From assembly GCA_000091205.1 (NCBI GenBank), contig AP006499.2: a DNA stretch of 64,000 bases. The stretch is one strand, 5' to 3'. The translations under genes were made by a program, and so were the position numbers. This stretch comes from Cyanidioschyzon merolae. Taxonomy: Eukaryota. Each line of letters begins with the position of its first letter. Position 1 is the stretch's first letter. Positions 1-45,477 of this stretch are shown in pieces. The notes beneath the pieces are model-generated. The model was not told the DNA's origin, did not search any database, and saw only the letters and a program-made list of their open reading frames with translations.

Positions 1-974
1 TCGGGTACAGCGTTGAAAATGGTGCTCGCATACGGCAAAGAGCGGTATCCAGGCCACTGGTCCTCTGTCGGTGTTCCCAGGAGCGAAAAGATCAAGTTTG
101 CTTGACTAACTTCATCTTTGCCTGGGAAGACCGGGCGCCCGGTCAACATTTCCAGAATGAGGCAGCCAGCGGACCAGATATCCACAGCGAAACCGTAGCA
201 GTTTTCCCCGAGCAGCAGTTCCGGTGCTCGATACCACAACGTGACCACCCGGTTGGTGTAGCGACGCCCGGTTTCCCCGAGGAAGCGAGCGAGTCCAAAG
301 TCAGCGATCTTCACTTTGCCGTCGCGACTAATCAGTATGTTGCTTCCCTTGATATCCCGGTGCATAACGCCCCGCGCATGGCAATATGCAAGACCACGGA
401 GGAGTTGCTGCGCATAGCATTTGACCTGTGCTTCCGAGAAGTGAATCTCTGGCGTGTCCATTAAACCCGTGAGGTCGTAGTCCATATATTCAAACACCAT
501 GAAGATATCGCCTTTGCGGTTGGTCTGGGTACCGCCTTGGCCTCTAGATGTTACCATCTCAATTAAGTTCACAATGTTCTCGTGCCGCAGCTCCCGCAGA
601 ACTTTGATCTCCCGGCATGCTGTCAGCGGGAATCCTTCCCGTTCATTGGCCATACGGAGGCGTTTAAGGGCTACCTCTTGTCCTGTCTCTCGGTTCCGGG
701 CGTGGTAGACTTCACCGTAGGTGCCTTCACCAACCTGTTCTAGTTTCTCGTACACCGTATCATCGCGAATCTTCCAGGGTGCTTCTTTTCGTCGTTGAAT
801 ATTCAGCGGCTTCGCGGTAAAAGTCTGTTCGGCATTTCCTAGAGAGCTGAGCGCTGGCGATGTAGATGGAAGCCGGGGTTTCACTGTCCACGGAGCCGAT
901 CCAAGAGACGTCCCTTCGGTCGTCTTGGACTCTGCAGAGGTTTTTTGGGCAGTCCCATTCTCCGGTGCGTGCAT
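1..974 (-). CDS. cyclin-dependent kinase, CDK9/PITALRE-like (3' end cut by window edge)
   Basis: Minus-strand translation from ATG at 974..972 reads MHAPENG...VGEGTYGEVYHARNRETGQEVALKRLRMANEREGFPLTACREIKVLRELRHENIV...YCHARGVMHRDIKGSNILISRDGKVKIADFGLAR...VTLWYRAPELLLG...DIWSAGCLILEM. These are the glycine loop, VALK, PLTACRE (PITALRE-like), HRD, DFG and APE motifs. There is an in-frame stop upstream at ~1046. It is absent from the ORF track because it runs off the window. Confidence 0.85.
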   Translation of the reverse strand, partial: MHAPENGTAQKTSAESKTTEGTSLGSAPWTVKPRLPSTSPALSSLGNAEQTFTAKPLNIQRRKEAPWKIRDDTVYEKLEQVGEGTYGEVYHARNRETGQEVALKRLRMANEREGFPLTACREIKVLRELRHENIVNLIEMVTSRGQGGTQTNRKGDIFMVFEYMDYDLTGLMDTPEIHFSEAQVKCYAQQLLRGLAYCHARGVMHRDIKGSNILISRDGKVKIADFGLARFLGETGRRYTNRVVTLWYRAPELLLGENCYGFAVDIWSAGCLILEMLTGRPVFPGKDEVSQANLIFSLLGTPTEDQWPGYRSLPYASTIFNAVP

Positions 975-1424
975 GGCTGCTATGAAGCCGTCCCCGATAC
1001 GTAGAAAAGAGCTACTCAACGTAACCGCTGTCCTGTCCGTCTTTCAACAACTGTGAAGAGAACCTCGATAGAACGCGCCCCAGCAGCGCGGACGCAACCC
1101 CTTACAGCGCTGTCTGCAGCGTGGAGGTCACCAAACCGTGAAAGCGTCCGTTACAACCTCGTTGGTTGCTATGCTTAAGAAAAACTGGAGCGTCCTTTTT
1201 CTCGAGTCGTTTTGTATCCGGCGCCGTTTCGTTTCGACTCGCTCCAACACGTACACGAAGAATCAGTCGTTGGAGGAAACGTAGCGTTTTTGACCGTTCT
1301 TCGCGATCGATTGGACGCGTCCGCGTATCGCCGAGAAAAGACCAGCAGGCTAGCCGTCAAAAACGTTACCCAAACACAGTACGCTCTTTAAAGCCGGTTA
1401 TCCCAGCGTTCAGCAGGGTCGAGC

Positions 1425-1453
1425 GCTCACTCACTCACTCACTCACTCACTCA
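1425..1453. repeat. (CACT)n microsatellite, ~7 units
   Basis: cactcactcactcactcactcactcac is read directly in the promoter region between the CDK gene and the downstream ORF. Confidence 0.9.
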
Positions 1454-1970
1454 CGCTATCAGGCGCTGCACCGAGACTCGACCAAGCTCGACCGCGTACT
1501 TTCACCAAGGTACTGTCGAAACGTAGCGAGCTTGAGATTTCAACGTGACGGAAACACTTGACTTTGTATGCGTTTGCCAAAGTGTGCGTCCGTGTGCCTG
1601 CTGCGCGGAACCCACACGCTCAAGCTGATTCCCGAACTGCGGAAACGTGTTGAACGCAGTTCAAACCTTCCTTCGTTACCGTTTATACCTCAAGCTCGGT
1701 GACTTTCGTGCAAGTTAATTAGAGAACCCCACCAGAACCTCAGCTTGAAGTACTGAAAGATAACCAATCGAAAAACAACGCCGAAGACCCAGACGTCCTA
1801 TAACAAGTAACCAACGAACCAACAGAATAGTAAGCTCGGTATTTTCGAGGATTCAGAGACCGCCAGTTCCATCGGCGAGCACAGCTTTGTGTCAAAGCTG
1901 CGTTCGGGCGGCGGTGCAAGAAGCTCGGGTCCCGAAGCACTTTGTCCGGCGTTTAGCTCCGACTCTGCGG

Positions 1971-4271
1971 ATGCCGGTGGCGAAAAGGCGACGAGGCGGG
2001 AAAACTGCTGCAGTTGAGCCGGACACTCGCGACACACGCTCGGATGCAGTCGCAGACCGGAAACGCACTGCCGCTGAGGTACCTGCGTCGAAGCTTCCAG
2101 GAAAGATCACGGACTTTGGAAGCGTTCCTCTGTCGAGACCTCTCGCCCCACCACTGCTCTTCGAGCTAGCTGAAGAGCGTGCGGACGATCTTTGCCGACT
2201 TGTGCTGGTCTCCCACGAGGGACGCCCGGTGTCCAGCGTCGACGCCCTATCGGAGTCGGAGTGGCGGGGGTTTGCGACTCAGGCAGTGCTGGCTCGCGAA
2301 GCTTGCTTCGCTGCTATACAGGGCGTACACCAGGGTGAGGCTCGTTCAGAGGACACGATTAAAGGAAACCAACGCGCAGCAGCACGCGATGTCAGTGAAA
2401 CTGCGAGCGACGCTGAGGCGGAACCATCTCCAGAAACTGCTATCCAGACGTCCGTATCTATTGCGGTGAGCGAAATGGATGAAATGATCACTCTATTAGA
2501 TGCTGTAATTGGTGGGTTTCTGCAGACCTGCGCTGCAGAAAGGTCAGGCTCTACTCGAGTCGAAGGCGGGGCCTCTCCGGCAGCACCACCACCTATCCTG
2601 CGCCCGGTTCCTCGAGACCGCTTGACAAGCCTCAAAACGCCGGAGACATTGCATCTGCATTCCAAAGACATGGATACAGAACGAGATACAGCGATAGTAA
2701 GCGTACAACGAGGATCGAGCGATTCCATGGGCTGGGCTCCACTCTGGATGCGTCGTGTTCAAACACTACAGTCGATTGCGGCGTTTTTGCGCCATCAGCA
2801 TGAGGTACTGGTTGGGCAAGGGACCAAGAATCGTCGCTTTCGTGAAGATCTTGCAATGCTCTGTTACGGAGACACGACAAGTTGCTCTGTGAATCGTTTG
2901 CGCCCGGTTCTGCTCGATACCCGTCTCTTGAGCGATACGAGAACAACAACAACAACAGCAGCAGCAGCAATGAGTCCGAAAGCTGGTACGCAGCGAATAC
3001 GGATCGAAGCGCACCTCCATGATGACTGCTGGATACCGCTCTGGCCCTGCGAGCGACACGAGTCTGCACTCCATGGCCATATCTCCGTACACGCATCGGA
3101 TATCGCTTCCCGTCTGGACTGCACCTGCCCGGTGCTGTTGCAGTGTTTCCGTGGACCAGAATCCTCGACCTGGTATCCAGATCAAGAGCCATTACTGCCC
3201 TTACAAAACCCAGATCCGATGTCGTTCCGTTCCGTGCCTTCTGCGATGAATGCAAACTCGGAATTCGTCGGTGTGGCTGCAGTTCGCCGTCTTCTGTTCA
3301 GGGTACGCTATCAGCAGACAATGCGACGACTGTATGAGCGACTCATCCACCAGGCGCATGACTGGCTTCGGATGTCCTTGCAGAGGCGATACCCTGGATC
3401 GCCGTTCGCCCGATACGATGGCGTCTGCGATCTTCGCGACGTTGACGAACGAGGCTTCACTTTCTACGATGCGCTCTCAGAGCAGGCGCTGCTGCGCGTT
3501 GCACTTGAACAGAAAACTCCTGGGGTGCTCAGAAGCGAAACGCATAGCGCTTCGGTGCCGCCGCTCCTGCAAGTTGTTGATGATATCGTCGGGCAACACG
3601 GTGCTGATTTTCCTGTGTTATGGCAACTCCTGGGCAATGCGTTGCGCATCTGTCATGGAACACTAGCTGTGTACACCGCAAGTCAGACATTGGGGCTGCT
3701 CGTTGCGAGCCGTCGCGACGGGTCACTGCATCCTCACGATGCAGCTGCTTCACGTGCCGACGTTGCGCACTTTACATTGGAGGTACGCTGGCCACAAACC
3801 GCTGGTGATGCAGCCAGTGTATGTCGGCTTCACTTCGGGAGCGATGCAGTTTCTGGGTGGGCATCAACGGATGCCGCCTCCCATCCAGAAAAGCTCTCGG
3901 ATCCTTCCCAGTTCATTGCGTTCTTGATTCGCAGTGTAGAATCGACACTGCTACGTCGAGCGATCGATGCATGGCATCGCGCGCTGCGTACACAGGCCCT
4001 GGAGTACGAGGTAGCGCTCCTTGCGAGCGGCGTCGCTCGAGTGAAGGTATGGCCTTCGGGTGCTGCGGCCTCAAGCGATGTCGTGGAACCACAGCGGATC
4101 ACGATGCATGTGGAGGCGCTGCAGAGCCCGTCAGCCTTGCCCAAATGGACGGGGCATGTTCAATTCAGACTTTGTTTGAACAGTGAGGAATGCTTTGTCG
4201 GCGATGCTGGTGCGCTCTGGACCTATTTGGACGAGTCGCTCAATATCCAGCGCCTGTTGCCGAACCTGTGA
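1971..4271 (+). CDS. hypothetical protein, low-complexity/disordered, ~766 aa from first ATG
   Basis: The 2.4-kb uninterrupted ORF (track 1887..4271) is too long for chance even at this GC. The track start is TTG; the first ATG at 1971 gives MPVAKRRRGGK (basic N-terminus). It contains a (CAA/CAG)n run coding T/A at ~2940-2975. No recognisable domain. Confidence 0.45.
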   Translation: MPVAKRRRGGKTAAVEPDTRDTRSDAVADRKRTAAEVPASKLPGKITDFGSVPLSRPLAPPLLFELAEERADDLCRLVLVSHEGRPVSSVDALSESEWRGFATQAVLAREACFAAIQGVHQGEARSEDTIKGNQRAAARDVSETASDAEAEPSPETAIQTSVSIAVSEMDEMITLLDAVIGGFLQTCAAERSGSTRVEGGASPAAPPPILRPVPRDRLTSLKTPETLHLHSKDMDTERDTAIVSVQRGSSDSMGWAPLWMRRVQTLQSIAAFLRHQHEVLVGQGTKNRRFREDLAMLCYGDTTSCSVNRLRPVLLDTRLLSDTRTTTTTAAAAMSPKAGTQRIRIEAHLHDDCWIPLWPCERHESALHGHISVHASDIASRLDCTCPVLLQCFRGPESSTWYPDQEPLLPLQNPDPMSFRSVPSAMNANSEFVGVAAVRRLLFRVRYQQTMRRLYERLIHQAHDWLRMSLQRRYPGSPFARYDGVCDLRDVDERGFTFYDALSEQALLRVALEQKTPGVLRSETHSASVPPLLQVVDDIVGQHGADFPVLWQLLGNALRICHGTLAVYTASQTLGLLVASRRDGSLHPHDAAASRADVAHFTLEVRWPQTAGDAASVCRLHFGSDAVSGWASTDAASHPEKLSDPSQFIAFLIRSVESTLLRRAIDAWHRALRTQALEYEVALLASGVARVKVWPSGAAASSDVVEPQRITMHVEALQSPSALPKWTGHVQFRLCLNSEECFVGDAGALWTYLDESLNIQRLLPNL

Positions 4272-6214: not shown

Positions 6215-9053
6215 AGCGGCTACGACGAAGCACAAGTTTTCTAGTTTTCGGAAGTAAGCACGTGGATATGGCGCTCCGAGTCTCTGGTGGTGATGTTCGT
6301 TTCAAACGAAAAATGCGGATGAAGATGGATGAAAAAGTGCATGCGCATGCACCGGTCTCTCGGTCGAGAGATCCGGCACCTGCCGCAGCTGCTCTGCCGG
6401 AGAAGCGCACGGCAGTGGTGGTGCTGGCGTCTCTGAAGCGAAACCAAATCAGCAGACGTGAACGGTATGTTGGGCATTGCGTGTCCTACCCAAAGCATGT
6501 GCAACACGTTGCTTGCAACGGAGACGCTACTGGGCCAGTTTTCTTACAGAAACGCTTCGCCGTCGAGCAATGGCCAGCGAATGTAACATTTTCCCTGAAT
6601 CGTTGCGGTTCGTTGAAAATTGCTTGGAAAATCGGTGATGACGGCTGCGGTGCACACGGAACTCCACACAGAAGCACCTGTTCATGTCGTGCCCCTTGGG
6701 GGATATAGCGTGCTCTGGGTCGGCTGAAGACCGGATTTCTACGGCCTGGTTGCTTCTCATCGGGGCTTTCGTCGGCGCACAAGGAACACAGTGGACGAGA
6801 CTTTTGGTACCAGCGTCGTTCACTTCGCTGAACCCTCGGGTCTCGATGCCCTCGCGCAGCGGCGGTACTGATTGACGACATCCATGAGACTGCAGCACGG
6901 ACACGAGGGTGCAATGTATCTCATATGAATACTCATCGGAACCGGTCTTGCATACCAATCTGATACTCATTTCAGAGTAAAAAATGAAATGGACACACTC
7001 ACATAAGTAGAGCGAACACGCTAAATTTTGGGCCTGTTACCACTTTCTGGAACACCAGTTTTGCGGGCTTTCTCTGTGACTGCTTCGTTTTTCGTCGCCC
7101 CAGTCTGAGGCGTTAAATATGCCAGTCTCTAGTGTTGCTCTAGCTTCGATACAAGCAGTCGAAAGATATTGATGACGGCATTCTAGTCCCGATTTGGCAG
7201 TTTCCGGCAGATGTCGAGGCATTTCATGCACAGGTGGAAATAGCGATCTACGCTCCGCTGGCTGTTGTCATCTCCCCAGCATGCAGCTTCAATGCGTCCT
7301 TGGAAGCGTCGACGCTAGGATGTGGTCAGGCATACCCACATGTCCATCGAACCTTCTCGTTTTCCGAGGTTCGGCCCTGTGGCTCGTGAAGGTCCATGTC
7401 ATCGCTCGGCGCTTGCCCTTGGCGGGTACGCAGAGCTCCCCTCGATGCAGTGCTTTGTTTCCGCGTTCCATGCCGTTCCCTGCGACCGTGGACTTTTGGA
7501 AGATCCCCCTGGCGAGTGCTCTGTTCGGCACATGCGGAAGCGCACGCTGTTGCATTCTACAGCGTTTCTTTTTTAAAGCGATTTTGTCGAAGATGAATCT
7601 AGTAGCGGGAGGAAGATCCTGGCCGGATTCGCAGTCGAGAAATCTCGATCTACCTACGTACCTGTCGTGCGAAGCGGTGACACACGCTTCACTGGGAGCG
7701 ATCGCCACGATAACTGAATTCCGAGGCCAACCTCCTTTTTCCATGCAAACAGAAGAGACGGGCGCCCCTTCGGACATATCTTGTGTGGACTACCATGTTA
7801 CTACCGTCGAATACCATGTCGTCGATGGCGAAAAACAGAGAATGTTTTTCTGCTGAACGGGATCGATTTTCTGACGGTGCGAATTTCAATGTGCTTTGGA
7901 TATGAGTTGGTCAACAGGTCCTCAATGGGCGAGGTCGAGCTCTGGACTTCGTCAATCCTGCAGTCCGAACGGATGTACCCAAGAAATCGGGTTGGAGCAA
8001 CATGATCGAAGACTTGAAGAATACGTGATTCTAGCATGCTAGGCGCAGGACAGAAACAAGAGCGGAGGCCTGTACGTGTGCACTGGATATTGGTGTTGGT
8101 GAATTTACGAATCCTTCTTCGAGAGCGTCTAAAATCATCTTGATTCCCGACACAACACGAATTCCACCTGCGATACATCGAATGATCCGCTCTTGAAAAA
8201 CGAGCTAGAATCCGAAACCTACACGTGAATCCGCACGCCGTTATTGCTGCACTTTTAATGTCGAGGCTGTACATCTAAAAGAATGTCCTGAAAGATCTCC
8301 AGGCGGGGACAGATCGCGTCGTTCAGACTTCGATTTGAATCTGACACGAGCGCACATTTGCTAGATATTGGTGTCAGAGATGGATCGTGGATATGTTTCA
8401 GGGCTCTGGGAGATTTTAACCCCAATGTACTCGATGAAAGGCTCTATTCTTTCTTTCAGGCCATGTACAGATGGTGTCTGGAATTCGGCATCGCAGCGAT
8501 TCGAAGTTCCGGTTCACGATAGGGCACGCTCAACAACTAGCGTCCGACGTTGCTAAGGTGAAGACGCCAAAATTACCATGCAAACTTCATGTCGGTGATG
8601 CGCGGAATTCGGGAGCGTTCGCCACGTTGGTTTATTTTGAGCGCAAAACAAAACTTGTGGCAAACACTATACATCTGTGCGTTGAGCCTGTCGACGGCGC
8701 TCTGTTCCGGGAGTCGGGCGTAATGTCAGCACTGGGCTGCAGTGCATCCGGATCCCTTGGTGAACAAAAAGGCATTGTCGGCGAATAGAGGTGAGAGGTG
8801 AAAATTGGCTGGTTCATGTCTTGCGCTTTGAAAATCAGGGCCCGATTCAAGTTCTCTACCACACACGTTCGATGTACATGCTTGCATCCTGATCACAATC
8901 AAATGACCTCTTAATCTATATCCAGTGGAAATTCACGTCTGCATCACAGCGAAAACCCCCCGAGTTTCCGCAGCGTCGCCCCTGCATTCGCCAAATAATA
9001 TTTTCAACGTCCAGTTCGCCAGGAGCGTTCCTCCTCTAACACGCGTGAGATAC

Positions 9054-17290: not shown

Positions 17291-18399
17291 ACTGCGCCGT
17301 CGCACCTGAACGTTTACTTGATCGAACGGTACATTCTCGTGATGAGTACAGAAGGTTAACCTCTGTGCCTTGCTCCGTTTTCGCGACAGGTGTCGTCAAC
17401 GACGACCACGGGCATCCAGCGGGCTATCCGTTCGGCGCGTACGCTGTCCGCAGCAGGTGCAAGCGCTCACCGTTCCATTCCATAGAGGACTTGAGGAGCG
17501 CGATGCTTTCCAGGATAAAGCAAGTACCTGAAGCAGAATCCAGGCTGAGGAACAAGTCGAGCATTTCGATTTGTCTACGCTCTCTTCCTGCAAAGCAGTG
17601 ATACGTTCGCCGCAAAAAGCGATCGCTGCGCTGACTCAACCCCGAGTTTAAGGTCCATTTCTATGCCAGTAGTAGAGACGACAGCCTCTAGGCGCATATA
17701 CAATGCGAGGTATCATGCTGCTGATGCATTGCATTTCTCTGATGCCTCTCAAGTGAGGGGGATGTTCGTTTCGAACGGAATCGATTGGTTGAAGTAAGAC
17801 GTTTGGTGAATGTTCCGGATGGTCTGGTGGATCATTCGTCAAGGAACGAAACGTCCGGTACGTTTCTTCGTCCGTGGAGCCGTGCGAAGGGCTTCGCCAA
17901 CGATTTCGCTTGAAACACGAAGATCGGGAGCTTGGAAGCCGCGTGCTTTCCGCATACTGTACATAAGGAAAGGAGAAGAGAGCAGGCCTTTGCGTTGGAA
18001 TTCGGTGGTGGTACCACTTATCTTACGTACCGTATTACGAGAGCCCCGCGAATAACGTTGAAGACGGTTGGATAACGAATCCAGTGGCAAAGCGTCGACG
18101 CAGCTACTTCGAAACCTGATTAAGAAACCTACACTACGATTGCATTCCAAAGCACTTATAGTCTCTCATCTCAAATTCGTTTTACCCCCCAGGTGCATGT
18201 CATCAAATTCATTTTCGTGGTTTATAGCAAATATGTTCGAAGTGCTCTCATTTGGAAGAAATAGAAAATCCATGGAAAGGGGCGGACCTGGAAGTCAAGG
18301 ATCCTGCAGGCTCGATGTCGCCGGGTTCAACAGCTTTTGGAAAAAAATCCTCTTCTTGGCAACCATAGAGCGAAGAAGAACAAGTGACGGAGAAGAACA

Positions 18400-18740
18400 A
18401 GAAGGGAGATAGGTGAGAAAATGTATTCGTCCGAAGTGACGATGACGAGACTTTAGTGTCACAGAAGACGCGAGTTCTAGGAATCCTCCTATCGCTGAGT
18501 TCAACCAACGGCAGGAAACGCATTGAGTTCGTGAACCGAGACTTTAATACCGCCATCAATATCAGACGATGTGTGGCGTTGGAGACGAGTCCCGAAGAAC
18601 CAAGGCAATGCAACTTCATGATGCAGCCTCTGACGCTCGTCGTACGACTGGATACACCGAGGCCGATAGCAGGCGGCCGGGGGAAAAAGACTGCGAAGCG
18701 TTTGCGGAACAGTATGTATACACTTACCGTTCAGGATCTT
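18400..18740 (+). mobile_element. TnpB/Fanzor-like relic, subfamily 1 (last ~35 codons plus conserved 3' non-coding module)
   Basis: The plus-strand ORF reads QKTRVLGILLSLSSTNGRKRIEFVNRDFNTAINIRRC (motif at 18528..18569). Downstream ~170 nt (gatagcaggcggccggggg..aaaaagactgcgaagcgtttgcgg..gtatgtatacacttacc) aligns with the 3' regions of the 21.5k, 36.6k and 46.1k copies. Confidence 0.55.
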
Positions 18741-20513
18741 AGGGCGTTGTCCGTTTTCACTCATCACATATTGCAGAGCGTGGTATTTCAAGCCTGCACA
18801 GCGATCAACATTTCGGCTAAAAATCGAAAGGCAAACATCGCGCGAGCTCCATGGTCCCCCAGTTTCGTCTCGTACGAGTGTAGACACGTCCTCTGGACTT
18901 GATGCAGAAGCAGCCGATATCGATAAGCGACACCTGTACAGCACTTGGAGCCTCACGTGTTCTGGTTGAAGCTGATCGTGCACATGTCCACGCATCTTGC
19001 TAGAGAAGGCATCATCGAATAGATTTTCACCGCATCCATACACCTGCTCAGATGATGCAGGTTCTCCATGAGCGTGCATCTGTGCTGCGCAGACACATCG
19101 CGTCTCGAAAAGAAACACAGGCGCTGCAATCAAGTGCGGATCTGAGGATTGCTGGACAACACGAATCGATGCAGGACCTCGGAGCCATTAGCTCGCAGTT
19201 CAGATTCGGGACCCAGCGACGGCTTGTACCGACATCGATTACCGAAAGATATGTGCATGGCGATAGCTAGACTCGGAAATGCAGGAGGAATCGGTATGTG
19301 ACGTTCTGGAGAACGACCTGAAGCGGAATCGAATCATACCAATGTCTGAAGAGACTCTTGTCGAACGGCGGTCCAGTATGACGTGTCACGGGTATGCAAG
19401 ATCATCACGTGATTGGTTTCTTGTGCAGATCCATTGAAAATATCGCATGGAGATGAAGAGCGAGCGTAAAGAGGCAGCCATGCATCAGTCGAGCGCAGGC
19501 CACGAGCGCTACCCTGGAAGGCCGGGTCGCCGACGCAGCACCACAAGCTGCACTCCACGCCTGGCAGCCATTCTATGCCAGTTGGTGCAACATCGCCAGC
19601 ATCCTGGCTCATGGGCAAAGTCTCGGTTGCATAGTGATGTCCAGGCGAGCCGGATTCGCTGATCGCCTCCAGCTGGCAGTACCAGACGCCGATGCGACGT
19701 GTAGCGCCCTGCATGGAAATGCCCAATCCATAGACATTTTGCGAGTCTCCAAATCGCACCGGGAAACATGTCCGCCGTTTAGGGTTCTGTATTTTTCATG
19801 GGGCGTGCCCAGTGTGTCGAACCTGAGCCCCCTGGACGTGTGATTCCTAACTGCGACCAGTAACGCATTCGCGGTTCGAATAGAGAGCTTTTGGGTTTTC
19901 ACAGAGCCCGGGCATGTGTCACACAGCCGGAAATGTGGTATGCATCCACTTTGCGACGTTCCAGGATCCAGAACATGCCATTGGCGCTTGCTGCGATGCA
20001 TTGCTCTGTAGCGCCACCGCGATCACTGTCCAGGGACAGCGCCGCTTTTCGGTGCTCCAATGGAGGCGTCGGCTCGAGGTAAATTCCTCTGTATTGGAAG
20101 CAAGCAGCGTAGATTCTGTGAAATGCCTCCATCGTGACGCTACGGCCGTTCAAGTGCGCTCCGCTCCTGACGCGAATCCCTATTCGGTATGCATCCGTGG
20201 ATTCCCAGTTGCGAATCGCGTCAGCTGCGGTTCCACTGCATCACACCTCTCAAAAAGTGATCGGGGTTTACGAATGGGCGTTTTTGGCCAGCGATAACAA
20301 GCTGTTGAGATTCATACGAATGCATCCCGTTCTTCAGTCCTGGGGCTCATAGTGAACATTCAGCGAGTGCCCGGTGCCAGGTACGGAAGCCAAGGACGGT
20401 CGAGTCGGCAACCAAACGCGCTGCTTTGAAGGATCCACTCGCCGAATGAATCGTCATCAAATCGCATTCCAGTTTTGATGTCGTTGCCGTCTGAGTCGAC
20501 GCTTTACGACCGA

Positions 20514-21371
20514 TCAAGCGAAGGCATATGCCTGGAAACGAAGTTTCTCAGCGAGGTACCGATTCGCCGCAAGAATACCTCTACCGTCGAGAATGAACTG
20601 CGCTCCGTTTGGCAAGAGACAAACACCACCAGCTTCCTCGACAAGCACTTGACCAGCGGCGAGATCCCAGGTATACGGACCCCATTCCGTGACCACATCG
20701 AAACGTCCACAAGCGACGAAGGCCATATTCAGGGCGGCACTGCCGGTGCTTCGAACCGCTTGGGTGCCGTTCTCGAGGATAGATCGCACCATTTCCAGCA
20801 TCATGGCGACTTTGGAGGCGGAGCGATCACTACCGTATTCGGTAGCAATACATGCATCGGGGAGTTCGCTCACACCGCTACAGAAGATCGGCTTGCCGTT
20901 CAGAAACGCCCCTCGACTGCGGCGGGCAACGAACATCTCCTCCATGATGGGGTTGTACACAACGCCCAGTCGAGCTTGACCTTCGGTGATCAACGCAATA
21001 GAGACAGCACATAGCGGAATATGGTGTACGAAGTTGGCCGTGCCGTCGATCGGGTCGATTGCCCAGGTCGGCGGGTCCAAGTCTTTGACCTGGAGGCTTT
21101 CAGGGCGCCCGTCGAAACCCTCTTCCCCGAGCACTCTGTGGCCCGTACCGTACCGCTCCAGGATGCGCCTTCGGCAGAGCTCCTCGACAGCTCGGTCAGT
21201 TTCTGTTACCGGATCCGTACGTTTCTTAACGTCGTATGCCGTGTGGTACCCGCCCACTGGAGCAGTTCGGAACGGCCAGTCTTTGAAGAAAGCCTGGCGA
21301 ATGAGCTCGCCGCACTCACGAGCCAGTGCTTCTGCGAAAACAAGTGCCTGATCCAGCTCCGACTCGAGCAT
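20514..21371 (-). CDS. inositol monophosphatase family protein (IMPase/FIG superfamily)
   Basis: PVTETDRAVEE, WAIDPIDGTANFVHHIP and VVTEWGPYTWDLAAG are the canonical IMPase metal-binding motifs. The track start 21539 is TTG; the first ATG (MLESELDQALVFAEALAREC) is at 21371, which matches the usual IMPase N-terminus. Confidence 0.85.
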   Translation of the reverse strand: MLESELDQALVFAEALARECGELIRQAFFKDWPFRTAPVGGYHTAYDVKKRTDPVTETDRAVEELCRRRILERYGTGHRVLGEEGFDGRPESLQVKDLDPPTWAIDPIDGTANFVHHIPLCAVSIALITEGQARLGVVYNPIMEEMFVARRSRGAFLNGKPIFCSGVSELPDACIATEYGSDRSASKVAMMLEMVRSILENGTQAVRSTGSAALNMAFVACGRFDVVTEWGPYTWDLAAGQVLVEEAGGVCLLPNGAQFILDGRGILAANRYLAEKLRFQAYAFA

Positions 21372-21603
21372 ACCTCGAGCCTTCAATCCTATGCAGGTAT
21401 ACGCTGCGTTGCCTGCGTAATGTCGTAGTAACCGTGAAGCTTGTCGTGGAAAAGTGCAGCACCGACAGCGAACGCCTTTCAAAAGAAAAACGCTGCCGCC
21501 GGCAGCGTACAGCCGTGGCGAAAAACCCGCCCTCGACAAGACGTCTCCAGCTGACGTGCAGACGCCTCCCAGACTTTTTTGGACCGGCCACCTACTACTG
21601 GTT

Positions 21604-23315
21604 TCAACTTCTTCTCATATAATTCCACCTTGTGAAGTTCCCCATAAAATTCTCTCTCGTCAAGTACGCAAGTCTTCTTTCCATCACCGCCCTTCTCCTG
21701 ATATTGATAGCGGCATTAAAGTCGCGATTCACAAACTCCATCCATTTCTTGTTGCAGCTGGTAGCACTTTCCATTGCAAGTAGTCCTCGAAATTTAACCC
21801 TCCTTTCCATTTGCTCATCTGTCAGCGCTCCGTACTTTTATATATCTTCAGGACTCCGCTGGCACTTTTCCATTTCGACCCTCTGAAGTGTACACCCCAG
21901 TTCATGGTGTGTATGGGACGTTCGAAACTCATCTACAGGTATTGTAACAAAACGCCTTGCGCACTCCTTGTATGTTCTTGCCGTTGGAGCTGGTGTAGTC
22001 CCTTTTTGGGTCTTCCAGCGCCCTGCTCCGTACGCTACTAGGAGCCTCTGACTTTCATCCTCCTTCAAGGCACTCAACTGATTGAAAAAATTCGCGAATG
22101 CACGCTGCTTCCCACAATACAAACTCATTCGCAAACGAGCCCACCGGGGCTTGCTGTACTCCTCCCACAGCGCATCCCAATGGGCGATGCGAACTTCCAT
22201 GAATGTCCGAAAAGCGTTAAAGTCTGCTCGTCGGCTCGTCACCTCGCACAAAGATTCCAGGTGATCCTTCATTCCTGCATTCCATGTCTCGATTTTCTTC
22301 CTCGCATTCATTATACCAGATTCTCGATAGTATCTTGCTCTCGAGAACCTCAAAAGACGCTTGCCTTTCCGACGTAAGTGTCCGTCAGTACCATCTTCCG
22401 CGCGCTTGGGTACTGTGATGTTTATTATATTCGTGTTTGCGGGGTCCGCGCCACCGACAAAATCGTTGTTCTCATGCACTTCTTGCGTCGCAGGATCCGC
22501 CTCTTTGTTTTCTTCAAGCGCCGATAGTGTACGCATATGGATACGCCATTGGTTTCGATTATCCCAGTGAATACCTTTTGCTTGCTTACTTTGAGACGTT
22601 TGAAATCGAAGGTACTCTTCCAGTACGTCTCCCGATTTTCACCGATGAACTCTGTCTTCCTTACATTGAACTCCGGACAGATCTCCTTCATGATGCCGTA
22701 GAGGACTCTGGAGTCGATAGTCACAAAATTCGACTTGATGTGGCACAATGGAACTTCGTTGAAGTGCTTCTCCAGAACCGCAGCCTTCCGTTTCGCCCAC
22801 TTTTCATTTTTTTCCACACTCAGTTTGATCTCCGCTTTGCGTTCGACTTCTCGGTTCAAAAACATGACATAGTGCAGGATGAGGCGATAGCGTCTTTCTT
22901 CATCTTTTTTCATATCTAGTACCTCTTCTGCTCGATTCGCCAGCCCCAGTGCCGCACGATGCTCATGCATAACCGCACGGATCACAGAAGCCTCATTCTT
23001 TCTCCTGCGCGATGTCTTCTTGTTTACAAATTCGGTCTCCTGTTCGTTTTTACTAACGTTCGTGACGCCATCGATGATGGTCCATATCCCTTTGCGAGAC
23101 AGGTCCGGGCGGAGTGCGAACACGGCGCGTATCATGAAACGTTCGAGGTTCATCGTGAAATGATTCTTCATGTTCGTGAGGTACCTCATGGCCCCGTGGG
23201 TGTGCATATCCGCGTCACCCTTGTATCGAGTACCGTTGATGCTACAGAAGATATATTTTTCGTGGAGGGCGTGCACTAGCTCATTTTCACTCCGCATATC
23301 CCATGTGCCAAGCAT
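21604..23315 (-). pseudogene. TnpB/Fanzor-like (OrfB zinc-ribbon, RuvC-III) transposon-encoded nuclease gene, disrupted; plus conserved 3' module 21470..21603
   Basis: Three collinear minus-strand ORFs: 22425..23315 (296 aa, ...[22 protein letters not shown]...); 21838..22536 (232 aa, a different frame with a 112-nt overlap, ...LLVAYGAGRWKTQKG...FVTIPVDEFRTSHTHHELGC...CQRSPEDI*); and after a single in-frame stop, 21604..21810 (...KKWMEFVNRDFNAAINIRRR). VDEFRTS..C resembles the TnpB VDExYTSxxCxxCG zinc ribbon, and NRDFNAAINI resembles the RuvC-III DxNAAxNI motif. A possible N-terminal extension is ORF 23338..23532. Confidence 0.55.
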
Positions 23316-24722
23316 CAGGTGACGAATAAAGGTCTTGTCAAAAAAACTCGTCCGGAACCTCGACTGTTTCTGTTCCCGTCACGTCACGATACATCCCCTT
23401 CACCAAATGCATTAGTCCCAAAGAAGCCTCACGAACACTCGTGGAGTACGAGTCGACACGATTTCTGATGGCCTCTCGGAAATCTTCCTTGTACGGATCC
23501 TTGATATGTTTAAGAAGACAGGCTTTCACCACTATCTCGTCGTTGTGTCGTCTTTTGTGCAGCTTCTGACGTCGGGTCTCCCCGTTTCGCTCCTACGTCT
23601 TCTCCTGTTCCCCTGAGCTCGGCTCTGATTTTCGTTTTTTCCCAGCAGCCGGCGGCACTGGGCCTCCAAGATCCTTTACTTACATCTCCAAAATTTTTTT
23701 GAAAGAGCACGCTCTTTGAACGATTCTGCGATAAAGCGCGAAAAAACACTTGAGTAAACTAAACTGAGGGTTCAAAAACGATTCAATTGAGAAACTATGC
23801 CACGACTTCAACACAAATACATCTTGTACGGTAGAGCAAGAAGACAATGAGTAGAATCGCGTTTCCCTTCAACGGCGAGAAACCAATACTGTCTCATGCC
23901 TGCCAGGATGGAGGTGCACGTATCGACCGCGCTATATAGAACAATGAAGAGAGACTAACCACTAACTGGCAACGATATGAGAAGTTCGTTCCCCCTCTAT
24001 GATAAACGTTACAAGTGGAAGGCTTTCCATGTTGTCGAAGGTTTACGTTCTAGGTGGAAGGTCCCTCGAGCTGGACGAATCTGCCGAGCTTGCGCTCCGT
24101 GCGACTCTGAAATGGCGGCCACTGTAGTGAAATCTGTGCAACTCATCCGCAGCGCAGTTTACTCTAGGACTCGGAGCGAGTAGAATGCATCTGGGCGACG
24201 CCAATGTTGCAGTTCTCTCCTAGCGTGCCGCTTCGCGCTGCCGCAGGCAGTAGGTCTACCGGTCCAGTTTGCAAGCTCCCGGAATAATGATAAACCCTGA
24301 CCCTGTGGCGGGTCGACGACGACTGGAGCGGACGCCGTCAGTGGTATGGCACAGCTCGTCTTTCTTCGTGTTGTAAAAGCACAAGTAGTATAGGCGGTCT
24401 TGCGGGTGGAGCTATGCAGGCACTCGGTGCACGATAGAACAAACGAAACGACCAGTTTCTCCCAGAGAACGTATACATCATGGATCCTAAAGGTAGCACA
24501 TATCGTGAAGGAAGCTTCCCTGAATGCCAGTATCCATGGTCAACGTAAACATTCTTTCAATCCAACAGAAAAGTACATCGGGATACCTGTGTCCGCTGAG
24601 CGAGACGTCGTCCGCCCAGGGCGCTGCCCCCGCGGGAGATCCGTCGAGTGCACCAGATAGGCCGCTCTGGCGTGCGTTCGGTGACCTTAGCTTTTTAAGC
24701 GCAATATTCGTTGAAACTTATA

Positions 24723-26470: not shown

Positions 26471-26603
26471 CAAAACTGATGCTATGTGCTCCACATCGCC
26501 GCTTTGACCTGCGCAAGTTGTACCGTATTCGCAAATAGCGCTCAAAACTGATGCTTTGTGCTCCACATCGCCGCTTTGACCTGCGCAAGTTCTAGCGTAT
26601 TCG
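26471..26603. repeat. 72-bp tandem duplication (2 units)
   Basis: caaaactgatgct(a/t)tgtgctccacatcgccgctttgacctgcgcaagtt(g/c)ta(c/g)cgtattcg is repeated at 26471 and 26543. It lies in the intergenic region 3' of the CBS gene. Confidence 0.85.
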
Positions 26604-35877: not shown

Positions 35878-36469
35878 TGCCCTGGCCTGTACTAAGATGC
35901 CGGATCCGCACCCAGACTGGTCAAGTACAACAGCATCAACGACCTAGTGATGACGCGAAGAGATGTCCGACGATAGAGCTGGCTGTGCCTGCTGCCTGGA
36001 CCCGCCAACATGAGGCAATACGCAGTCATCTCGAACAATGAAATACCATCGTGATTCACCAATTGCTCACAAAATGCATTCCCGATGTATCTATACAGCG
36101 CTTTCTTCTTACTGGACTGCTGAACCGTACGAGAGCAGTGCCTTGGTGCAGACGGAGATCCAATGACCACTCTCGTGGCCATTGATTTTTTTCATCGGAA
36201 TTTGTCAGCATGTGAGTACAGTGCCTCGACTGCGTTCTCAGCGATTCCCACGAACATTCGCGTAAAACGAAGCTGCTGGAGGCCCCGGAGAGCATGAATC
36301 ATTTCCGGATATTGATCGAGGCGCTCAAGTATCGGTGCAGAAGGTGCTTCGGCGCATTGTTGATAGCAAAGTCACACCATAGCGAGCCTCGCTTCCTCCA
36401 TTGCCTCTCCGTTTGGCGCTTGATTCGCTCTGCCCGACGCCATCTCGAGCATTCGTCTCTGTTTCACGC

Positions 36470-36900
36470 CTTGCTTATGCATCTGTTGGATATGCGATCC
36501 GTAAAACAGAAAATGCGCCACGACCATGGCGGGTACGTTTCCATATACCCACGCGCAGACGCGTCCCAGCATTTTTGACTGGCTGCCTGCTATCGGTATC
36601 GGATTATCCAGGTAAACGTGGTGCTTGAGACGCTGCCCCACAAAGTTAGCTCGCGTTAGCTCCTTGGGTATCTCGTCAGTTGCACCGGAAATCGTCTGAT
36701 ACTGATATCGACGTTGAACTCTCGATTCACGAACTCCTTGCGTCCGTTGTCGCTGGTGGAACGCACCAGTGCAACGATCCCCGGAACGCGAGCCCTCTGG
36801 GTCACAACAGTCTCGTCGTCATCCCGTCGCGGAAACCCCGCGTCTCGTCTATCTTTCCTCTTTCTTTTGTCGTATGTTCTTCTGTGCTCGATGATTGACA
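36470..36900 (-). mobile_element. TnpB/Fanzor-like relic, subfamily 1
   Basis: The minus ORF 36656..36946 reads ...VVTQRARVPGIVALVRSTSDNGRKEFVNREFNVDISIRRF (motif 36692..36736), aligning residue-for-residue with the 18.5k and 46.2k copies. The downstream ~230 nt (gatagcaggcagccagtcaaaaatgctgggacgcgtctgcgcgtgggtatatggaaacgtacccgccatggtcgtgg) is conserved at the nucleotide level with 46.1k, 21.5k and 18.6k. Confidence 0.55.
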
Positions 36901-39900
36901 AACAGCGGATTTTTCCGGTTTTCCGGCATCTGGCGATCACGGGCATCTAGGATCCCCGACTTTTACGTCCATACCGTCCGCTTGGATTGTTTATTTCTTC
37001 AAAATGAACGCACTTTGAACGCGTCTGCTATAAACCACGAGAAAGCATTTGATTACAGGAACCCAGGAATAAAACACATTTGAGGCGAAAGACGACTAGG
37101 TGCACCGGTGCTTGTGATGCGTGTATGTTGTCCTTGACGTATGAAAGCGAATCATAGCACATCGTCTCCTGCACTCGTTGTGCGCTATCTTGGGCACAGC
37201 AGGAGTGCATTCTCGTGCGCGACAGCTCGTCCAGCGCCATCGTCAAGCACCAAATGATGCAGGTTATCAGTCAACAACGCTTCTGACTCATTGCACAAGT
37301 CGGTGAATGCACATTTCTTGCCTCCGTCCAATCGAGACGGGTCGGCAACCCCAGCGCGGTTACAGGCGTCTTTGACAAAAATCGTTCCCGTGATCCACTT
37401 GAACAGTCACGTTTTATCTAAATGAAGCGTACAGAGTCTCGCTGGCGGCTCGATACGGTTCTCAGAGTGTCGAGACTCGGCTGCTCACGCCGTGATTCCT
37501 CTTCCTGGCATGTCGCCTAGCATTCAGGATTCCCGACTGCAGATGATGTCGAGCCCCGGAGACGATGAGCAGCAGCATCTGCTTTTCGTTTTTGGCATCG
37601 GGTCCGTCCGTCCTTTAAATTTAGCAGTACGGAGACGCCCTTGGAGGTCTTCAATCCAGGATCCAAGTCCGTTGCCAAGTCTTTCTCTTCATCTACGTCG
37701 AGCGGATGAACATAAGAATCGTTGCCCGAATGGGACCTCGGTTTTCACCAAATGCATGCAGAGCGATGTGTGGTCGACCTCCATTGCCCCAGTACACTCG
37801 TTTTCATTTCCTCCCTGTGAACGTGAAACCTTGAACGAACTCCGTCACAATGTTCCTCATGAAGTTCTTCGAATGCTGCATGCCTGCTCGCGGAGACCAG
37901 ACGTAACGGACTGAGGTCGGCATGCAACGCAGTCCAGTCCAGAAGTATCTACGGGCACATGTACAGGAACACGGAGTTGGATACGGTTCCCCGATCGAAC
38001 GGAAACCTTGAGGAGGATTGAGTGCTCGGATCCGGGATGGCAGTCTGGTTTGCTGTCGAGGGCTCTGTTCAGGAAAATCCAGAAGCGAAAGATGCAACGA
38101 AGGTAGCGATGACGTACCCAGCGCCTTCTGGATACGACATCCCGCCGTCCGCAACCGTGTGCAGCACGACCAGCGTGAACGATCTGAAGCGAACCTCGTT
38201 CTCGTAGCGACACCTCTCCTGAACTCGCTACCACCCTTAGCGCTTCCGTCACCAGTTCGTCATTTGCATATAGCGAAAGACCAAGAATCCCTTACATCAG
38301 TCCCTGCTCCTCTGGGTCAGCTAGGTGATGGTATCAAGCCCATAGGTTGCATTTCACGAAGCGCTCGAGATGGACCCGTTGATGGATTTTCAGGTTCGTT
38401 AGATGCACTTTGTCACCTGTCCTCTGGACGTTCCGCTAGAAAACATGACAAGCCTGCGAGTCAACCTTTCATCCGAAACGCATTAGCAACTGTTTGATTC
38501 TGAGATCGAACCGTTTCGCATCTAATATCCTGGGGAATCGTTGTGTTGTTCCACGACAGCTAGATCAAACTTCCAAGCGAATGTGGTGAGCTTCCAGACC
38601 GGCTTCGCGACCTTGTACGAAGTTTGGCTTGACCAGGCGCGTCTAGACAAGGGAAGCAAGGCGGACCTTTCTCGAGTGAGAAGCTACTCGACCTCAAAAA
38701 GGGCTCTGCAATGCTCCATTCGAAAGATTCTCAACGCCGTATTGGTATGTTTGAATTTGGAGGCAATAAAATTGTTATCACAGTGAGCTTCTTGGTCCTA
38801 TGGTTTTCCGGTCTTGTGCCTTTTCGCCCTCTCTTCGGAATAATCTTTCTCTTCTATGGCTGGTGATGTCTTCTCTGTCTCTATTACTTGGCGGGATTGT
38901 AAAGCCCCTATGCTCTACATCCGTTCTTTCCCTCGTGACTCACATATGCGCTGGGTCCACGATAGGACTGAGACTCGTCTTTTCTAATTCCATTTCCAAA
39001 AGTTCTCAAGTACCTCCTCATCACCTTCTCCGTCGCAAGCAAGCCCGCGGACTGAAGGGCACCGTCCCGCTCGCTCCTGTACACGAGCACAGAAGCAGCA
39101 GAGCAGCCAGGGCCGGTGAAGATGCTCGAGAACGCATTGTCGAAGTGAGGTGTCACGGATCCGAACAACTCGTCTAATGATCCATGAATTGAAACATAGC
39201 GCTCGAAAAAACATAAAAGACGCTTTCGAACGGGTTGAAGCGGGGAGGCTAGGCTGGCATGAAGCGTTGGTCAAAGCCAGTCTCCACCGGATGCTTCTTG
39301 ACCGCTTTTGATTCATGGACATCGATGTTGTCTAACAGCAGCACCGAAGCATGCGGGATGGAGAATCCACAAAGCGTACGTCGACGAAGGATGCGGTTTC
39401 GAGCATTCCCTTCCGTTTGGCGATTCGTAGGTAACGAAACGATAGCATCGCAGCTATCGCTGGTGCTGTCGCCGTGCCCGGTTGTCGCTTCTTAACGAAA
39501 AGCGGATTACCCCGCTTTGTGAACCCATAAACAGGTCAGCAGCTTCCCGTGAATGAGTCTTGTTGAGTGAGACAAGCATACGTCCCTCCTGTACAACGCG
39601 GTCGTGTTTCAGTACGAAATCGATATGGTGTTGGTCAATGCGTAATGGTCTCCCAAAGGAGCGTGCTTTTTGCTTCGTCAATCTGTGTCATTTATCACTG
39701 TACGGATCAACGATTCGCAAACTCTACATCCTGTAGCTTATCAGATAGTAATTCTCAGAGTATGCATATGGTTTGGAATGCATGGACGAGGCGAAAATCG
39801 TGTGGATAGAGCTTGATAAGTGCTGCTTTGGGTCCACGACTTTCTACGAGAAGCGTGTTTCATCCATCCGTTGATCGTAGAATGGCTTTCTTGCACACCA

Positions 39901-43773: not shown

Positions 43774-45477
43774 TCAGAGCTCCCGAAAAGACTCCCCGAA
43801 GCTTTCTTGCGCCTCCATCATAACGGTACTGTCGTCGCCGGTGTCGGTGTCGGAGGTATTTCCTGTGTTAGGAATCCGACTTTGCAACGGGGCACTCGCA
43901 TCGTCATCATCAACGTCGATCATGTTTGGAATACTGGCATTTCGAAGCAATTGCGGATGAACGATTTGAGAGAGCGGACCCGTGGCAGTCACAGCGGCTG
44001 CGGCAACGTGTGCTCGTTGGTCATCTGCTCCGGCCGCTTTGGTATGCTCTGCGACACACGGCGTATGATAGGTGGATTCTACGGCATTACCGACGATCGT
44101 CGGTTTCAGTCGGATTGCAGGCGCATCTTCGGGCCTGTCTCGAGCCATGCCCTCGACCTGATTCCACATTGTCGCCAGTTTTTCCTTGGGCATGCTCGCA
44201 TACGCTCGCTCGTACGGTATTCCGTCCCGCTGTTGACTCGTTAATGCCGCGCGGAAGCGATCCGCCTCACTGGGGATCTCGTATCCTCCCGCATGGCCTC
44301 GTAGCATCGTCTCGCGTAAATCTGGATGGTAGTGCAGGATTTCCTCCCAGAAAAGCTGCCGCATCTGTGATGCAGTGAGCTGCTCGCGTTCGAAGAAGAA
44401 TTCCTCGGGCGGCAATGGGCTACCAGATACAATGGATTCCGGAGTATAGAGGCCTCTAAAATAAACATGCTGGAGTGCTTCCAGGGCTGTTAGGCGCTTG
44501 TTCGGATCAAACTGAAGCAGGTTTCGAAGCAGGTCCAATGCATCCGGGGGCGCGTCTGGGAACACTGTATCCAAGGGTTTCGGCGGTCGCGGCGGCAGCG
44601 AGCGCAGATGTTGTCTTACGCGCTGATTCCGCACCTTCGCAATCGACTCCTCATCCGGGGTACCGAGCAGCTTCACAATCAGCTCCAATTGCTCAAAGCT
44701 ATTCATACCGGGGAACAGGGGTTTTCCGCGATTCAAAAGTTCGGCGAAAATGCATCCCGCAGACCAGATATCGATCGCCGCTGAGTACTTTGACGAATAA
44801 CTCATGATCAGCTCTGGTGCACGATACCATCGCGTCGCCACATAATCCGTCCAGCACGCCATATCTTCTTGTTGGTTGTAGGCTAGTCGGGCGAGCCCAA
44901 AGTCGATCACCCTTAAATCACACAACTCATTAATCATGATGTTGTTCGGTTTTATATCGCGATGAAGCACGTTGCAGCTGTGCATGTAATGAAGCGCTTG
45001 CAATAGTTGATACATGAGCCATCGGATATGATCCTGCGATAACGGAATGGGTGCCCTCAGGACTCGATTCAAGTCCGCTGGCATCAACTCGAAAACCACG
45101 AACACGTCATCAAACGAGTCACGCTCCGAAGGTGCAAGAATCTCGCGGATGCTAATGATGTTTTCGTGGGAACGCAGGAGGCGCAGGAACCGAAGCTCCC
45201 GCAGGATGCGTACAGCTTCGGGAATCTCGTCGAAAACGCGGCGAATTCGTTTCACAGCCACTTTTTCCCCTGTCTGTATATCAATCGCTGAGCACACAAC
45301 CCCATAAGCACCTTCTCCGATGATTGACACGAACCTGTAACGGTTACCAATTAGGCGTGCATCAAAGAAAGCGCTGCGCGCTTCAGCCGGGCGGTGTGGC
45401 TGTGGCGCCTGACGCCTATCCCCTACGTTGTAACCATCCTGAACTCCTTGGGCATGGCTGTTGCGCAAGTCGCTCAT
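43774..45477 (-). CDS. mitogen-activated protein kinase (TDY activation-loop type) with extended C-terminal region
   Basis: IGEGAYGVVCSAID..KVAVKRI, HRDIKPNNIMI, DFGLAR, ACWTDYVATRWYRAPE (TDY dual-phosphorylation motif), DIWSAGCIFAELL. There is a true ATG at 45477..45475. Confidence 0.85.
   Translation of the reverse strand: MSDLRNSHAQGVQDGYNVGDRRQAPQPHRPAEARSAFFDARLIGNRYRFVSIIGEGAYGVVCSAIDIQTGEKVAVKRIRRVFDEIPEAVRILRELRFLRLLRSHENIISIREILAPSERDSFDDVFVVFELMPADLNRVLRAPIPLSQDHIRWLMYQLLQALHYMHSCNVLHRDIKPNNIMINELCDLRVIDFGLARLAYNQQEDMACWTDYVATRWYRAPELIMSYSSKYSAAIDIWSAGCIFAELLNRGKPLFPGMNSFEQLELIVKLLGTPDEESIAKVRNQRVRQHLRSLPPRPPKPLDTVFPDAPPDALDLLRNLLQFDPNKRLTALEALQHVYFRGLYTPESIVSGSPLPPEEFFFEREQLTASQMRQLFWEEILHYHPDLRETMLRGHAGGYEIPSEADRFRAALTSQQRDGIPYERAYASMPKEKLATMWNQVEGMARDRPEDAPAIRLKPTIVGNAVESTYHTPCVAEHTKAAGADDQRAHVAAAAVTATGPLSQIVHPQLLRNASIPNMIDVDDDDASAPLQSRIPNTGNTSDTDTGDDSTVMMEAQESFGESFREL

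Follow-up and report, generated by a model that had tools for sequence, protein, structure and literature searches.

A decaying copy of the Fanzor1 transposon CMe-1A next to an inositol monophosphatase gene of Cyanidioschyzon merolae

Fanzor proteins are the eukaryotic homologues of TnpB, and their RNA-guided nuclease activity was demonstrated in 2023 (Saito et al., PMC10432273). Characterised systems of both kinds, Fanzor and TnpB, transcribe their guide RNA from the element's right end (PMC10432273). The sole family of transposable elements bearing a Fanzor1 gene that has been reported for Cyanidioschyzon merolae is CMe-1A (Bao & Jurka 2013, Mobile DNA 4:12; PMC3627910). It was described as comprising ~150 copies, each ~80% identical to a consensus of ~3 kb (3169 bp), with a single-exon gene for a protein of 734 amino acids. 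The element is without terminal inverted repeats (TIRs), its target-site duplication (TSD) was not defined, its 5′ 635 bp correspond to the repeat TE-N2_CMe, some copies retain an intact open reading frame (ORF), and the authors left its classification as unknown (PMC3627910). Here we analyse the element at positions 21473 to ~24563 (minus strand) of a 64,000-nucleotide stretch of C. merolae contig AP006499.2 (the window), which is almost certainly one old, fixed and neutrally decaying copy of CMe-1A. The element described here is not new: the family has been in the literature since 2013, together with its assignment to Fanzor1, the number of copies and the lack of TIRs and TSDs. The value of the analysis as a discovery is limited; it yields a base-level map of the lesions of one CMe-1A copy and some leads on how a Fanzor element without TIRs might move, namely a covarying 3′ hairpin, a separable TE-N2 module and a possible bias toward sites upstream of co-oriented genes.

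Identity and decay of the copy

The CMe-1A consensus DNA and the CMe-1 protein were taken from the supplements of the 2013 paper (PMC3627910). By blastn, consensus positions 45-3169 align to window positions 24537-21473 with 82.0% identity over 3135 columns. When the two are aligned globally, the first consensus position falls at ~24563, and the 5′ part of the window copy shows a 19-bp deletion. On both alignments the copy is near full length, ~3.09 kb (21473-24563, minus strand), with its 5′ end uncertain by ~20 bp. It is assigned to CMe-1A because it is colinear with the 3169-bp consensus at 82%, a full-length nucleotide homology found in C. merolae itself. The DNA is nuclear: proteins of the window exactly match the C. 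merolae 10D entries BAM82099.1 (inositol monophosphatase, IMPase), BAM82104.1, BAM82105.1 and BAM82107.1, and among its long ORFs, which have no introns, are those for a sigma factor of plastid type, a MAP kinase, a chorismate mutase and the IMPase. A trypanosomatid source, to which the absence of introns and the GC content had first pointed, was rejected in view of the sigma factor and the exact protein matches. A search with the stitched translation of the element returned 77 homologues at E values down to 1e-273, far beyond chance. Among them are an uninterrupted relative of 752 amino acids (P0001) and ~40%-identical metagenome proteins of 600-730 amino acids; the allele P0005, encoded on contig L001, is 99% identical to the window copy. 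A preliminary description of this DNA, made from the sequence alone, had proposed a disrupted, Fanzor-like eukaryotic TnpB homologue upstream of the IMPase gene, and the full-length identity to CMe-1A bears this out, together with the structure and profile-profile matches given below. Its extent of 21470-23532 was sound at the 3′ boundary (21473) but fell short at the 5′ side, where the element reaches ~24563 and is about 1 kb longer.

The remnant of the Fanzor1 ORF occupies 21532-23685 on the minus strand (consensus ORF 906-3110, 734 codons) and retains 75% amino-acid identity in the consensus frame. Aligned codon by codon with the consensus, it agrees at 551 of 735 residues; the codon differences comprise 90 that are synonymous and 162 that are non-synonymous. 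Three pieces had been reported, with a 112-nt overlap and a single in-frame stop, and all are present on the minus strand as described: a piece of 296 amino acids (22425-23315), one of 232 amino acids in another frame (21838-22536), and a C-terminal piece (21607-21835) that follows the in-frame TAA at 21840-21838 and closes at a TGA (21606-21604). This inventory was nevertheless incomplete, as it left out a fourth piece of 64 amino acids in the third frame (23532-23341), two further stops, two indels (one of -1 and one of +1), and the loss of the ancestral stop.

Read along the consensus, the lesions begin at the start codon. The ATG (23685-23683) is followed directly by a premature TAA (23682-23680; the pair spans 23680-23685), and a premature TAG stands at 23593-23595 in place of consensus codon 33 (Lys). 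A run of seven T residues at 23340-23346, behind which the 64-residue piece lies, carries a +1 frameshift relative to the consensus TTTTTC and is polymorphic among strains. A 49-nt deletion (consensus 2080-2128), with its junction at 22516-22517 on the edge of a 77-nt repeat region, shifts the frame and is the reason for the 112-nt overlap of the two long pieces; an in-frame +3 insertion lies at ~22470. The TAA at 21838-21840 replaces consensus Glu633 and is the same in all strains aligned there. A 1-nt deletion at approximately 21649 throws the C-terminal tail out of frame, hence the TGA at 21606-21604 is not the ancestral stop. A +1 insertion follows at ~21580, and the ancestral stop itself (21534-21532) is lost. 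Measured against the single-exon consensus, the ORF is thus interrupted by three premature stops and four frameshifting indels. Judged from its sequence, the window copy is a pseudogene, an inert relic that cannot make the protein.

The insertion recurs in four contigs of Cyanidioschyzon assembled from hot-spring metagenomes (L001, L005, L006 and L007), which are ~99% identical. Three of them, L001, L006 and L007, cover the sites of the 49-nt deletion and of the TAA at 21840-21838, and all three have both lesions. The window, L006 and L007 have the extra T of the 7-T run; L001 lacks it, and its P0005 reads through this point and ends in the same out-of-frame tail after the 49-nt deletion. Among the four strains the element has 20.4 variable sites per kb, compared to 13.8-20.6 in intergenic DNA and 4.7-5.4 in the flanking IMPase and CBS-domain coding sequences, a density four times that of the coding sequences. 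The window copy is old, is fixed in these strains, and evolves without detectable constraint.

Assignment of the CMe-1 family to Fanzor1

In an alignment of 112 family sequences, the residues D364, E536 and D605 (and also N607) are invariant, and the corresponding D/E/D codons are kept in the window copy. A split RuvC site with D/E/D is therefore found in the family and in this copy alike. The RuvC-I catalytic Asp codon is at 22444-22446 (minus strand, as are the other two), in a motif that is DPG in the consensus and has Ala for Gly in the window copy; D364 aligns to GVDPG of the Chlamydomonas/Chlorella proteins and to GCDPG of Guillardia theta GtFz1. The RuvC-II Glu codon (21928-21930, VDEFRT, E536) aligns to IDEYxTS of Chlamydomonas/Chlorella Fanzor1, and the RuvC-III Asp codon (21721-21723, NRDFNAAINI, D605 and N607) to NRDVxAA of the same proteins. 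The profile-profile comparison (hhalign) of the family with four Chlamydomonas/Chlorella Fanzor1 proteins (from PMC3627910) gave a probability of 99.5% and an E value of 3.2e-23, and aligned the GxDPG, VDEF/IDEY and NRDxNAA motifs with one another. The two motifs quoted in the preliminary description, VDEFRTSHTHHELGC and KWMEFVNRDFNAAINIRRR, are both present in the translation. The first had been taken for a zinc ribbon, a reading that does not hold: it carries the invariant RuvC-II Glu, and the four zinc cysteines of other Fanzor1 and TnpB proteins are not conserved in the clade.

The fold agrees with this assignment. A structure prediction had been suggested as a check, and the AlphaFold2 model of P0001 (pLDDT 84, pTM 0.81) matches Fanzor1 over its full length, with the WED/REC/RuvC architecture. 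In a Foldseek search of the PDB, the seven best matches of this model are all Fanzor1 (SpuFz, PpFz and GtFz; E 4e-16 to 2e-13), and matches to Cas12 and TnpB follow only at E >= 0.01. The template-modelling (TM) score on target length is 0.71 for Fanzor1, compared to 0.15-0.30 for TnpB and Cas12f. The family is also a multi-copy eukaryotic transposable element, with ten further copies at other loci and relics within the window. Taken on its motifs and its modelled fold, the CMe-1 family is Fanzor1, a eukaryotic TnpB homologue, and by homology and fold its intact proteins would be RNA-guided DNA endonucleases.

Several observations weigh against the reading of the element as a CMe-1A copy of Fanzor1 type. 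In the Pfam scan, the stitched translation reached 13 bits with Cas12f1-like_TNB (E 0.12), below the cut-off of 26.3 bits, and the scan with the prokaryotic NCBIfam models gave no match. The family profile searched against PDB sequences found only GtFz1, at an E value of 0.072, in the strands that precede the DPG motif. The zinc finger (CxxC...CxxC) between RuvC-II and RuvC-III is missing: the four cysteines that are invariant in Chlamydomonas/Chlorella Fanzor1 align to non-conserved, mostly non-Cys positions in the CMe-1 clade. The structure that was modelled is that of the intact relative P0001, 60-69% identical, and not of the broken sequence of the window. No empty site was found among the IMPase-anchored metagenome loci; all four close relatives carry the insertion, and for this reason no target site or TSD can be defined. 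The putative omega RNA at the 3′ end of CMe-1, for its part, is suggested by conservation, modest covariation and fold z-scores, detailed below. The lost zinc cysteines are a difference at the level of the clade and are outweighed by the evidence from the fold and the catalytic site. As for the profile scans, those of eight homologues likewise gave a sub-threshold Cas12f1-like_TNB match or nothing, and homology to Fanzor and TnpB is visible only at the profile-profile and structure level. The direct OrfB/TnpB profile search that had been put forward as a refuting test would thus nearly have misfired, with its weak score on a family that is Fanzor1 by profile-profile comparison (E 3e-23) and by fold.

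In precomputed Pfam assignments, family members, P0005 included, carry PF26935 (DUF8286) in their N-terminal part; the function of this domain is unknown and its entry states no connection to Fanzor. The Pfam copy searched here did not return it, and a literature search for DUF8286 found no paper. Our results indicate that DUF8286 corresponds to the REC-like N-terminal region of the CMe-1 Fanzor1 clade. Standard Pfam and NCBIfam scans miss this clade, and some of its members are labelled as DUF8286 only. The family profile matches 3,929 clusters (50%-identity representatives) at E <= 1e-3, mostly unnamed metagenomic sequences. Among the homologous proteins (P0001-P0363), the sole one named by organism is a partial protein of the green alga Haematococcus lacustris, and none comes from the C. 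merolae 10D annotation. Near the N-terminus, the translation and the CMe-1 consensus protein (AAGKKRKT) share the basic motif KKRK (23629-23640, minus strand), a candidate nuclear-localisation motif. The gene of an intact member encodes this N-terminal KKRK, a large helical REC-like region (DUF8286) and the split RuvC with D/E/D.

Anatomy, 3′ end and host locus

The window copy was compared with ten further copies at different loci in Cyanidioschyzon-like contigs. Five of these (in L002, L003, L049, L051 and L052) start at consensus 648-670 and are without the TE-N2 module, which in L049 and L052 lies inverted beside the 5′ end of the Fanzor unit. The published 'A' consensus of CMe-1A therefore looks like a composite of two elements that tend to sit side by side. 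In the window, the comparison of copies separates a 5′ module equivalent to TE-N2_CMe (23932-24563, minus strand; consensus ~1-647) from the Fanzor unit proper (21473-23931, minus strand; consensus ~648-3169), which holds a 5′ leader, the ORF remnant and the 3′ non-coding end. Since the module is missing or inverted in several copies, the Fanzor unit proper measures ~2.5 kb. An intact element of the published layout consists of the ~0.63-kb TE-N2_CMe-like module, a leader of ~250 bp, the single-exon gene of 734 codons, and a 3′ non-coding end of ~60 nt with a final hairpin. A 77-nt tandem repeat (consensus 2117-2195) encodes an acidic repeat of ~25 amino acids in the disordered linker before RuvC-I, and varies from 1 to 5 copies between loci (window ~22440-22517, L002 6168-6376, L051 1790-2091, L053 463-691).

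Homology to the consensus and to the ten other copies stops at 21473, at a shared 3′ point, ...GAA(A/C)GGCG(T). Terminal repeats and target-site duplications, for which the preliminary description had advised a search, were looked for in the flanks of 8 copies: neither TIRs nor TSDs are visible, in agreement with Bao & Jurka (PMC3627910), and the 3′ flanks of these copies are only loosely G/T-rich. Among the ORFs of the window, no transposase, tnpA included, was seen within the element or next to it. T-rich strings immediately precede consensus position 1 in the window (24545-24585, TACTTTTCTGTTGGATTGA) and in L057 (~640-680, GCGTTTTTTTCTTTTTGA). These strings resemble the element's own 3′ end (GCGTTTTTCTTTTGA), and L004 is without one. 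Either both termini may have a short direct repeat in common, or the published consensus may lack ~15-20 bp at its 5′ end.

The conserved 3′ region at 21473-21700 (minus strand), which comprises the tail of the ORF and the 3′ non-coding end, is a candidate module for an omega RNA or Fanzor RNA (fRNA) on the basis of conservation, folding and covariation. The last 250 nt show a mean column identity of 82% among 11 copies, and the fold of the 3′ end has z-scores of -2.65 and -2.77 relative to shuffled sequences. The RNAalifold consensus contains ten pairs with compensatory change, compared to 4.0±1.5 in shuffles and 1-5 in slid controls, while its covariation term for the 3′ end is ~0. No compensatory change is found in the alignment for the long-range CAGUAGUGG/CCACUACUG helix. 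Rfam holds no relevant family over the window at the gathering threshold, or over the 3′ end at E <= 1. An alternative structure, taken from the single-sequence minimum-free-energy fold of L053, was rejected, with 81.6% of cells paired compared to 91.4% for the RNAalifold consensus. The best-supported single feature of the 3′ end is the terminal hairpin CGTTTTTC-TTTT-GAAAGGCG (21473-21492, minus strand), in which the alignment shows five pairs changed on both sides. The other subfamily has a second sequence version of it in the last ~20-25 nt, CGTTCGA-CTT-TCGAACG, with the five pairs covarying. The hairpin is a candidate for an RNA scaffold element or for a DNA transposition signal. In intact members, the guide RNA would be transcribed from the 3′ end across the right boundary, as the examples of SpuFz1 and GtFz1 suggest.

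Directly downstream of the element and in the same orientation lies the host gene for IMPase (20514-21371, minus strand), whose 285-residue product equals BAM82099.1 and matches Pfam Inositol_P at E 2e-62. The distance from the element to its ATG had been put at ~100 bp, and the spacer indeed measures 101 bp (21372-21472, the ATG being at 21371). None of its 101 positions varies among the four strains, a stretch too short for this invariance to carry meaning. At the opposite end of the element, the CBS-domain gene begins no earlier than 24723, and the element fills all but ~260 bp of the divergent intergenic region. The insertion split a divergent promoter region of ~260 bp between the CBS-domain gene and the IMPase gene, and the element now supplies everything upstream of -101 of the IMPase ATG; passive effects of this kind are the only plausible ones at present.

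The same arrangement recurs elsewhere. The next host gene downstream of the 3′ end is co-oriented at nine of ten independent loci with an identifiable neighbour (one-sided binomial p ~0.01), and its first possible ATG follows after 5-436 nt, with 101 nt in the case of IMPase. This sample (the window, L004, L049 and L051-L056, with L002 as the exception) is small and non-random, its contigs having been picked through ORF calls, and the relics within the window are without such a bias (1/3 co-oriented). Elements of the CMe-1A type may insert, or be retained, just upstream of co-oriented host genes, either by insertion coupled to transcription or to single-stranded DNA, as in IS200/IS605, or through co-option of the 3′ end as a promoter or 5′ leader; we consider this possible, with the odds well against it. 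An IS200/IS605-like insertion would fit the absence of TIRs, the absence of a TSD and the 3′-terminal hairpin.

Co-option at the present locus is compatible with the pseudogene state of the ORF and is the alternative that survives best, even though we regard it as somewhat less probable again and, on the whole, unlikely. The 3′ end would then act as promoter or 5′ leader of IMPase, or provide a guide RNA to intact CMe-1 proteins in trans. In favour of such a role are the position of the element, co-oriented with IMPase and only 101 bp from its ATG, the recurrence of this arrangement at 9/10 loci, the good conservation and stable fold of the 3′ end, and the presence of the insertion in four strains. 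However, the orientation sample is subject to the limits given above, with the window relics at 1/3, and the 3′ 134 nt carry 2 polymorphic sites (~15 per kb), no lower than neutral DNA. In a genome as compact as this one, the short intergenic regions are the only places where insertions survive, and co-orientation could arise from nothing more than selection against antisense read-through. If the 3′ end has been co-opted as promoter or leader, IMPase would today be regulated in part by the dead copy at 21473-24563.

The preliminary description had allowed for two states of the gene, a pseudogene or a gene whose introns, once spliced, would remove the 112-nt overlap and the in-frame stop. The first stands and the second does not, because the consensus is single-exon and all breaks of the frame are indels relative to it. 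A working Fanzor gene with introns might claim in its favour the catalytic D/E/D codons, which are still there, the 75% amino-acid identity in the consensus frame, and a GTAAGT-like string after the ATG. The C. merolae genome has about 27 introns in all, and the rescue of this ORF would by itself require at least five. Every break maps to an indel (the +1 in the T-run, the 49-nt deletion, the -1 and the +1), three stops come in addition, the T-run frameshift is polymorphic between strains, and the region is as variable as intergenic DNA. In the published consensus, one exon encodes all 734 amino acids (PMC3627910). We hold a spliced gene to be highly improbable and retain the decayed pseudogene of CMe-1A. 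The chance that the element is a prokaryotic TnpB of the IS200/IS605 or IS607 type, acquired by horizontal transfer or contamination, is practically nil, as in four strains it is flanked by host genes on a nuclear chromosome of C. merolae, encodes ~734 amino acids with a large REC region and a fold at TM 0.71 to Fanzor1 and 0.15-0.30 to TnpB/Cas12f, is sub-threshold with the Pfam TnpB C-terminal model and unmatched in NCBIfam, has no adjacent tnpA gene, and has no prokaryotic name among the homologues listed, where the only match named by organism is a green alga.

Related sequences in the window and comparison with known systems

The window holds further sequences of this kind. At 36287-38717 (minus strand) lies a second, older and far more divergent Fanzor1 pseudogene, with 25-30% amino-acid identity to CMe-1 and its relatives, in which DLDPG can be made out along with decayed forms of VDEFRT ('IRFHTSRTTYTHH') and NRDxNAA ('HRYLSASINIRK'). 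Between the VDEFRT and NRDxNAA remnants it is split by a nested element of ~620 bp (~36490-37100). The latter is one of two colinear copies of an ORF-less derivative (18157-18780, plus strand; 36490-37100, minus strand), 67% identical over ~620 bp, in which the CMe-1A leader (consensus ~786-959) is joined to the 3′ end (~2849-3088+); such derivatives have their counterpart in the 'ghost' Spu-1 elements known from SpuFz1. What is left of another Fanzor1 C-terminus and 3′ end, with 43% amino-acid and 68% nucleotide identity to CMe-1A, is located at 46088-46390 (minus strand), ~0.5-0.6 kb upstream of the co-oriented MAP kinase gene (43774-45477, minus strand), and a weaker Fanzor1 C-terminal match lies at 7105-7272 (minus strand). 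Other features include two 61-bp direct repeats, 95% identical and offset by 72 bp (26471-26603), a few hundred bp beyond the stop codon of the CBS-domain gene (26213) and present in the window and three strains. A tRNA gene at 53101-53185 (plus strand; 60.9 bits) is the sole Rfam match at the gathering threshold in the window.

Set beside the known systems, the CMe-1 protein differs from the prokaryotic TnpB of IS200/IS605 (e.g. ISDra2, PDB 8H1J) in several ways. It is twice the size and has a large helical N-terminal region; CMe-1A is without a TnpA partner, is eukaryotic and nuclear, its protein bears a motif like a nuclear-localisation signal, and the Pfam and NCBIfam TnpB models stay below threshold. 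The experimentally characterised Fanzor1 nucleases SpuFz1, GtFz1 and PpFz1 (PDB 8GKH, 9CEU, 9CER and 9CF1) share 12-15% sequence identity with the CMe-1 clade. Their zinc-finger cysteines are not conserved in this clade, and the Spu-1 element is flanked by 30-nt inverted repeats whereas CMe-1A has no such repeats. The closest system is the published CMe-1A itself. The window copy comes from the same species and belongs to the same family, and its 82% identity fits the '~80% identical to the consensus' of the original account (PMC3627910). It has in common with that element the 5′ TE-N2_CMe module, the single-exon ORF layout and the missing TIRs, and it differs from the intact CMe-1A copies in its three stops, four frameshifts and 19-bp 5′ deletion.

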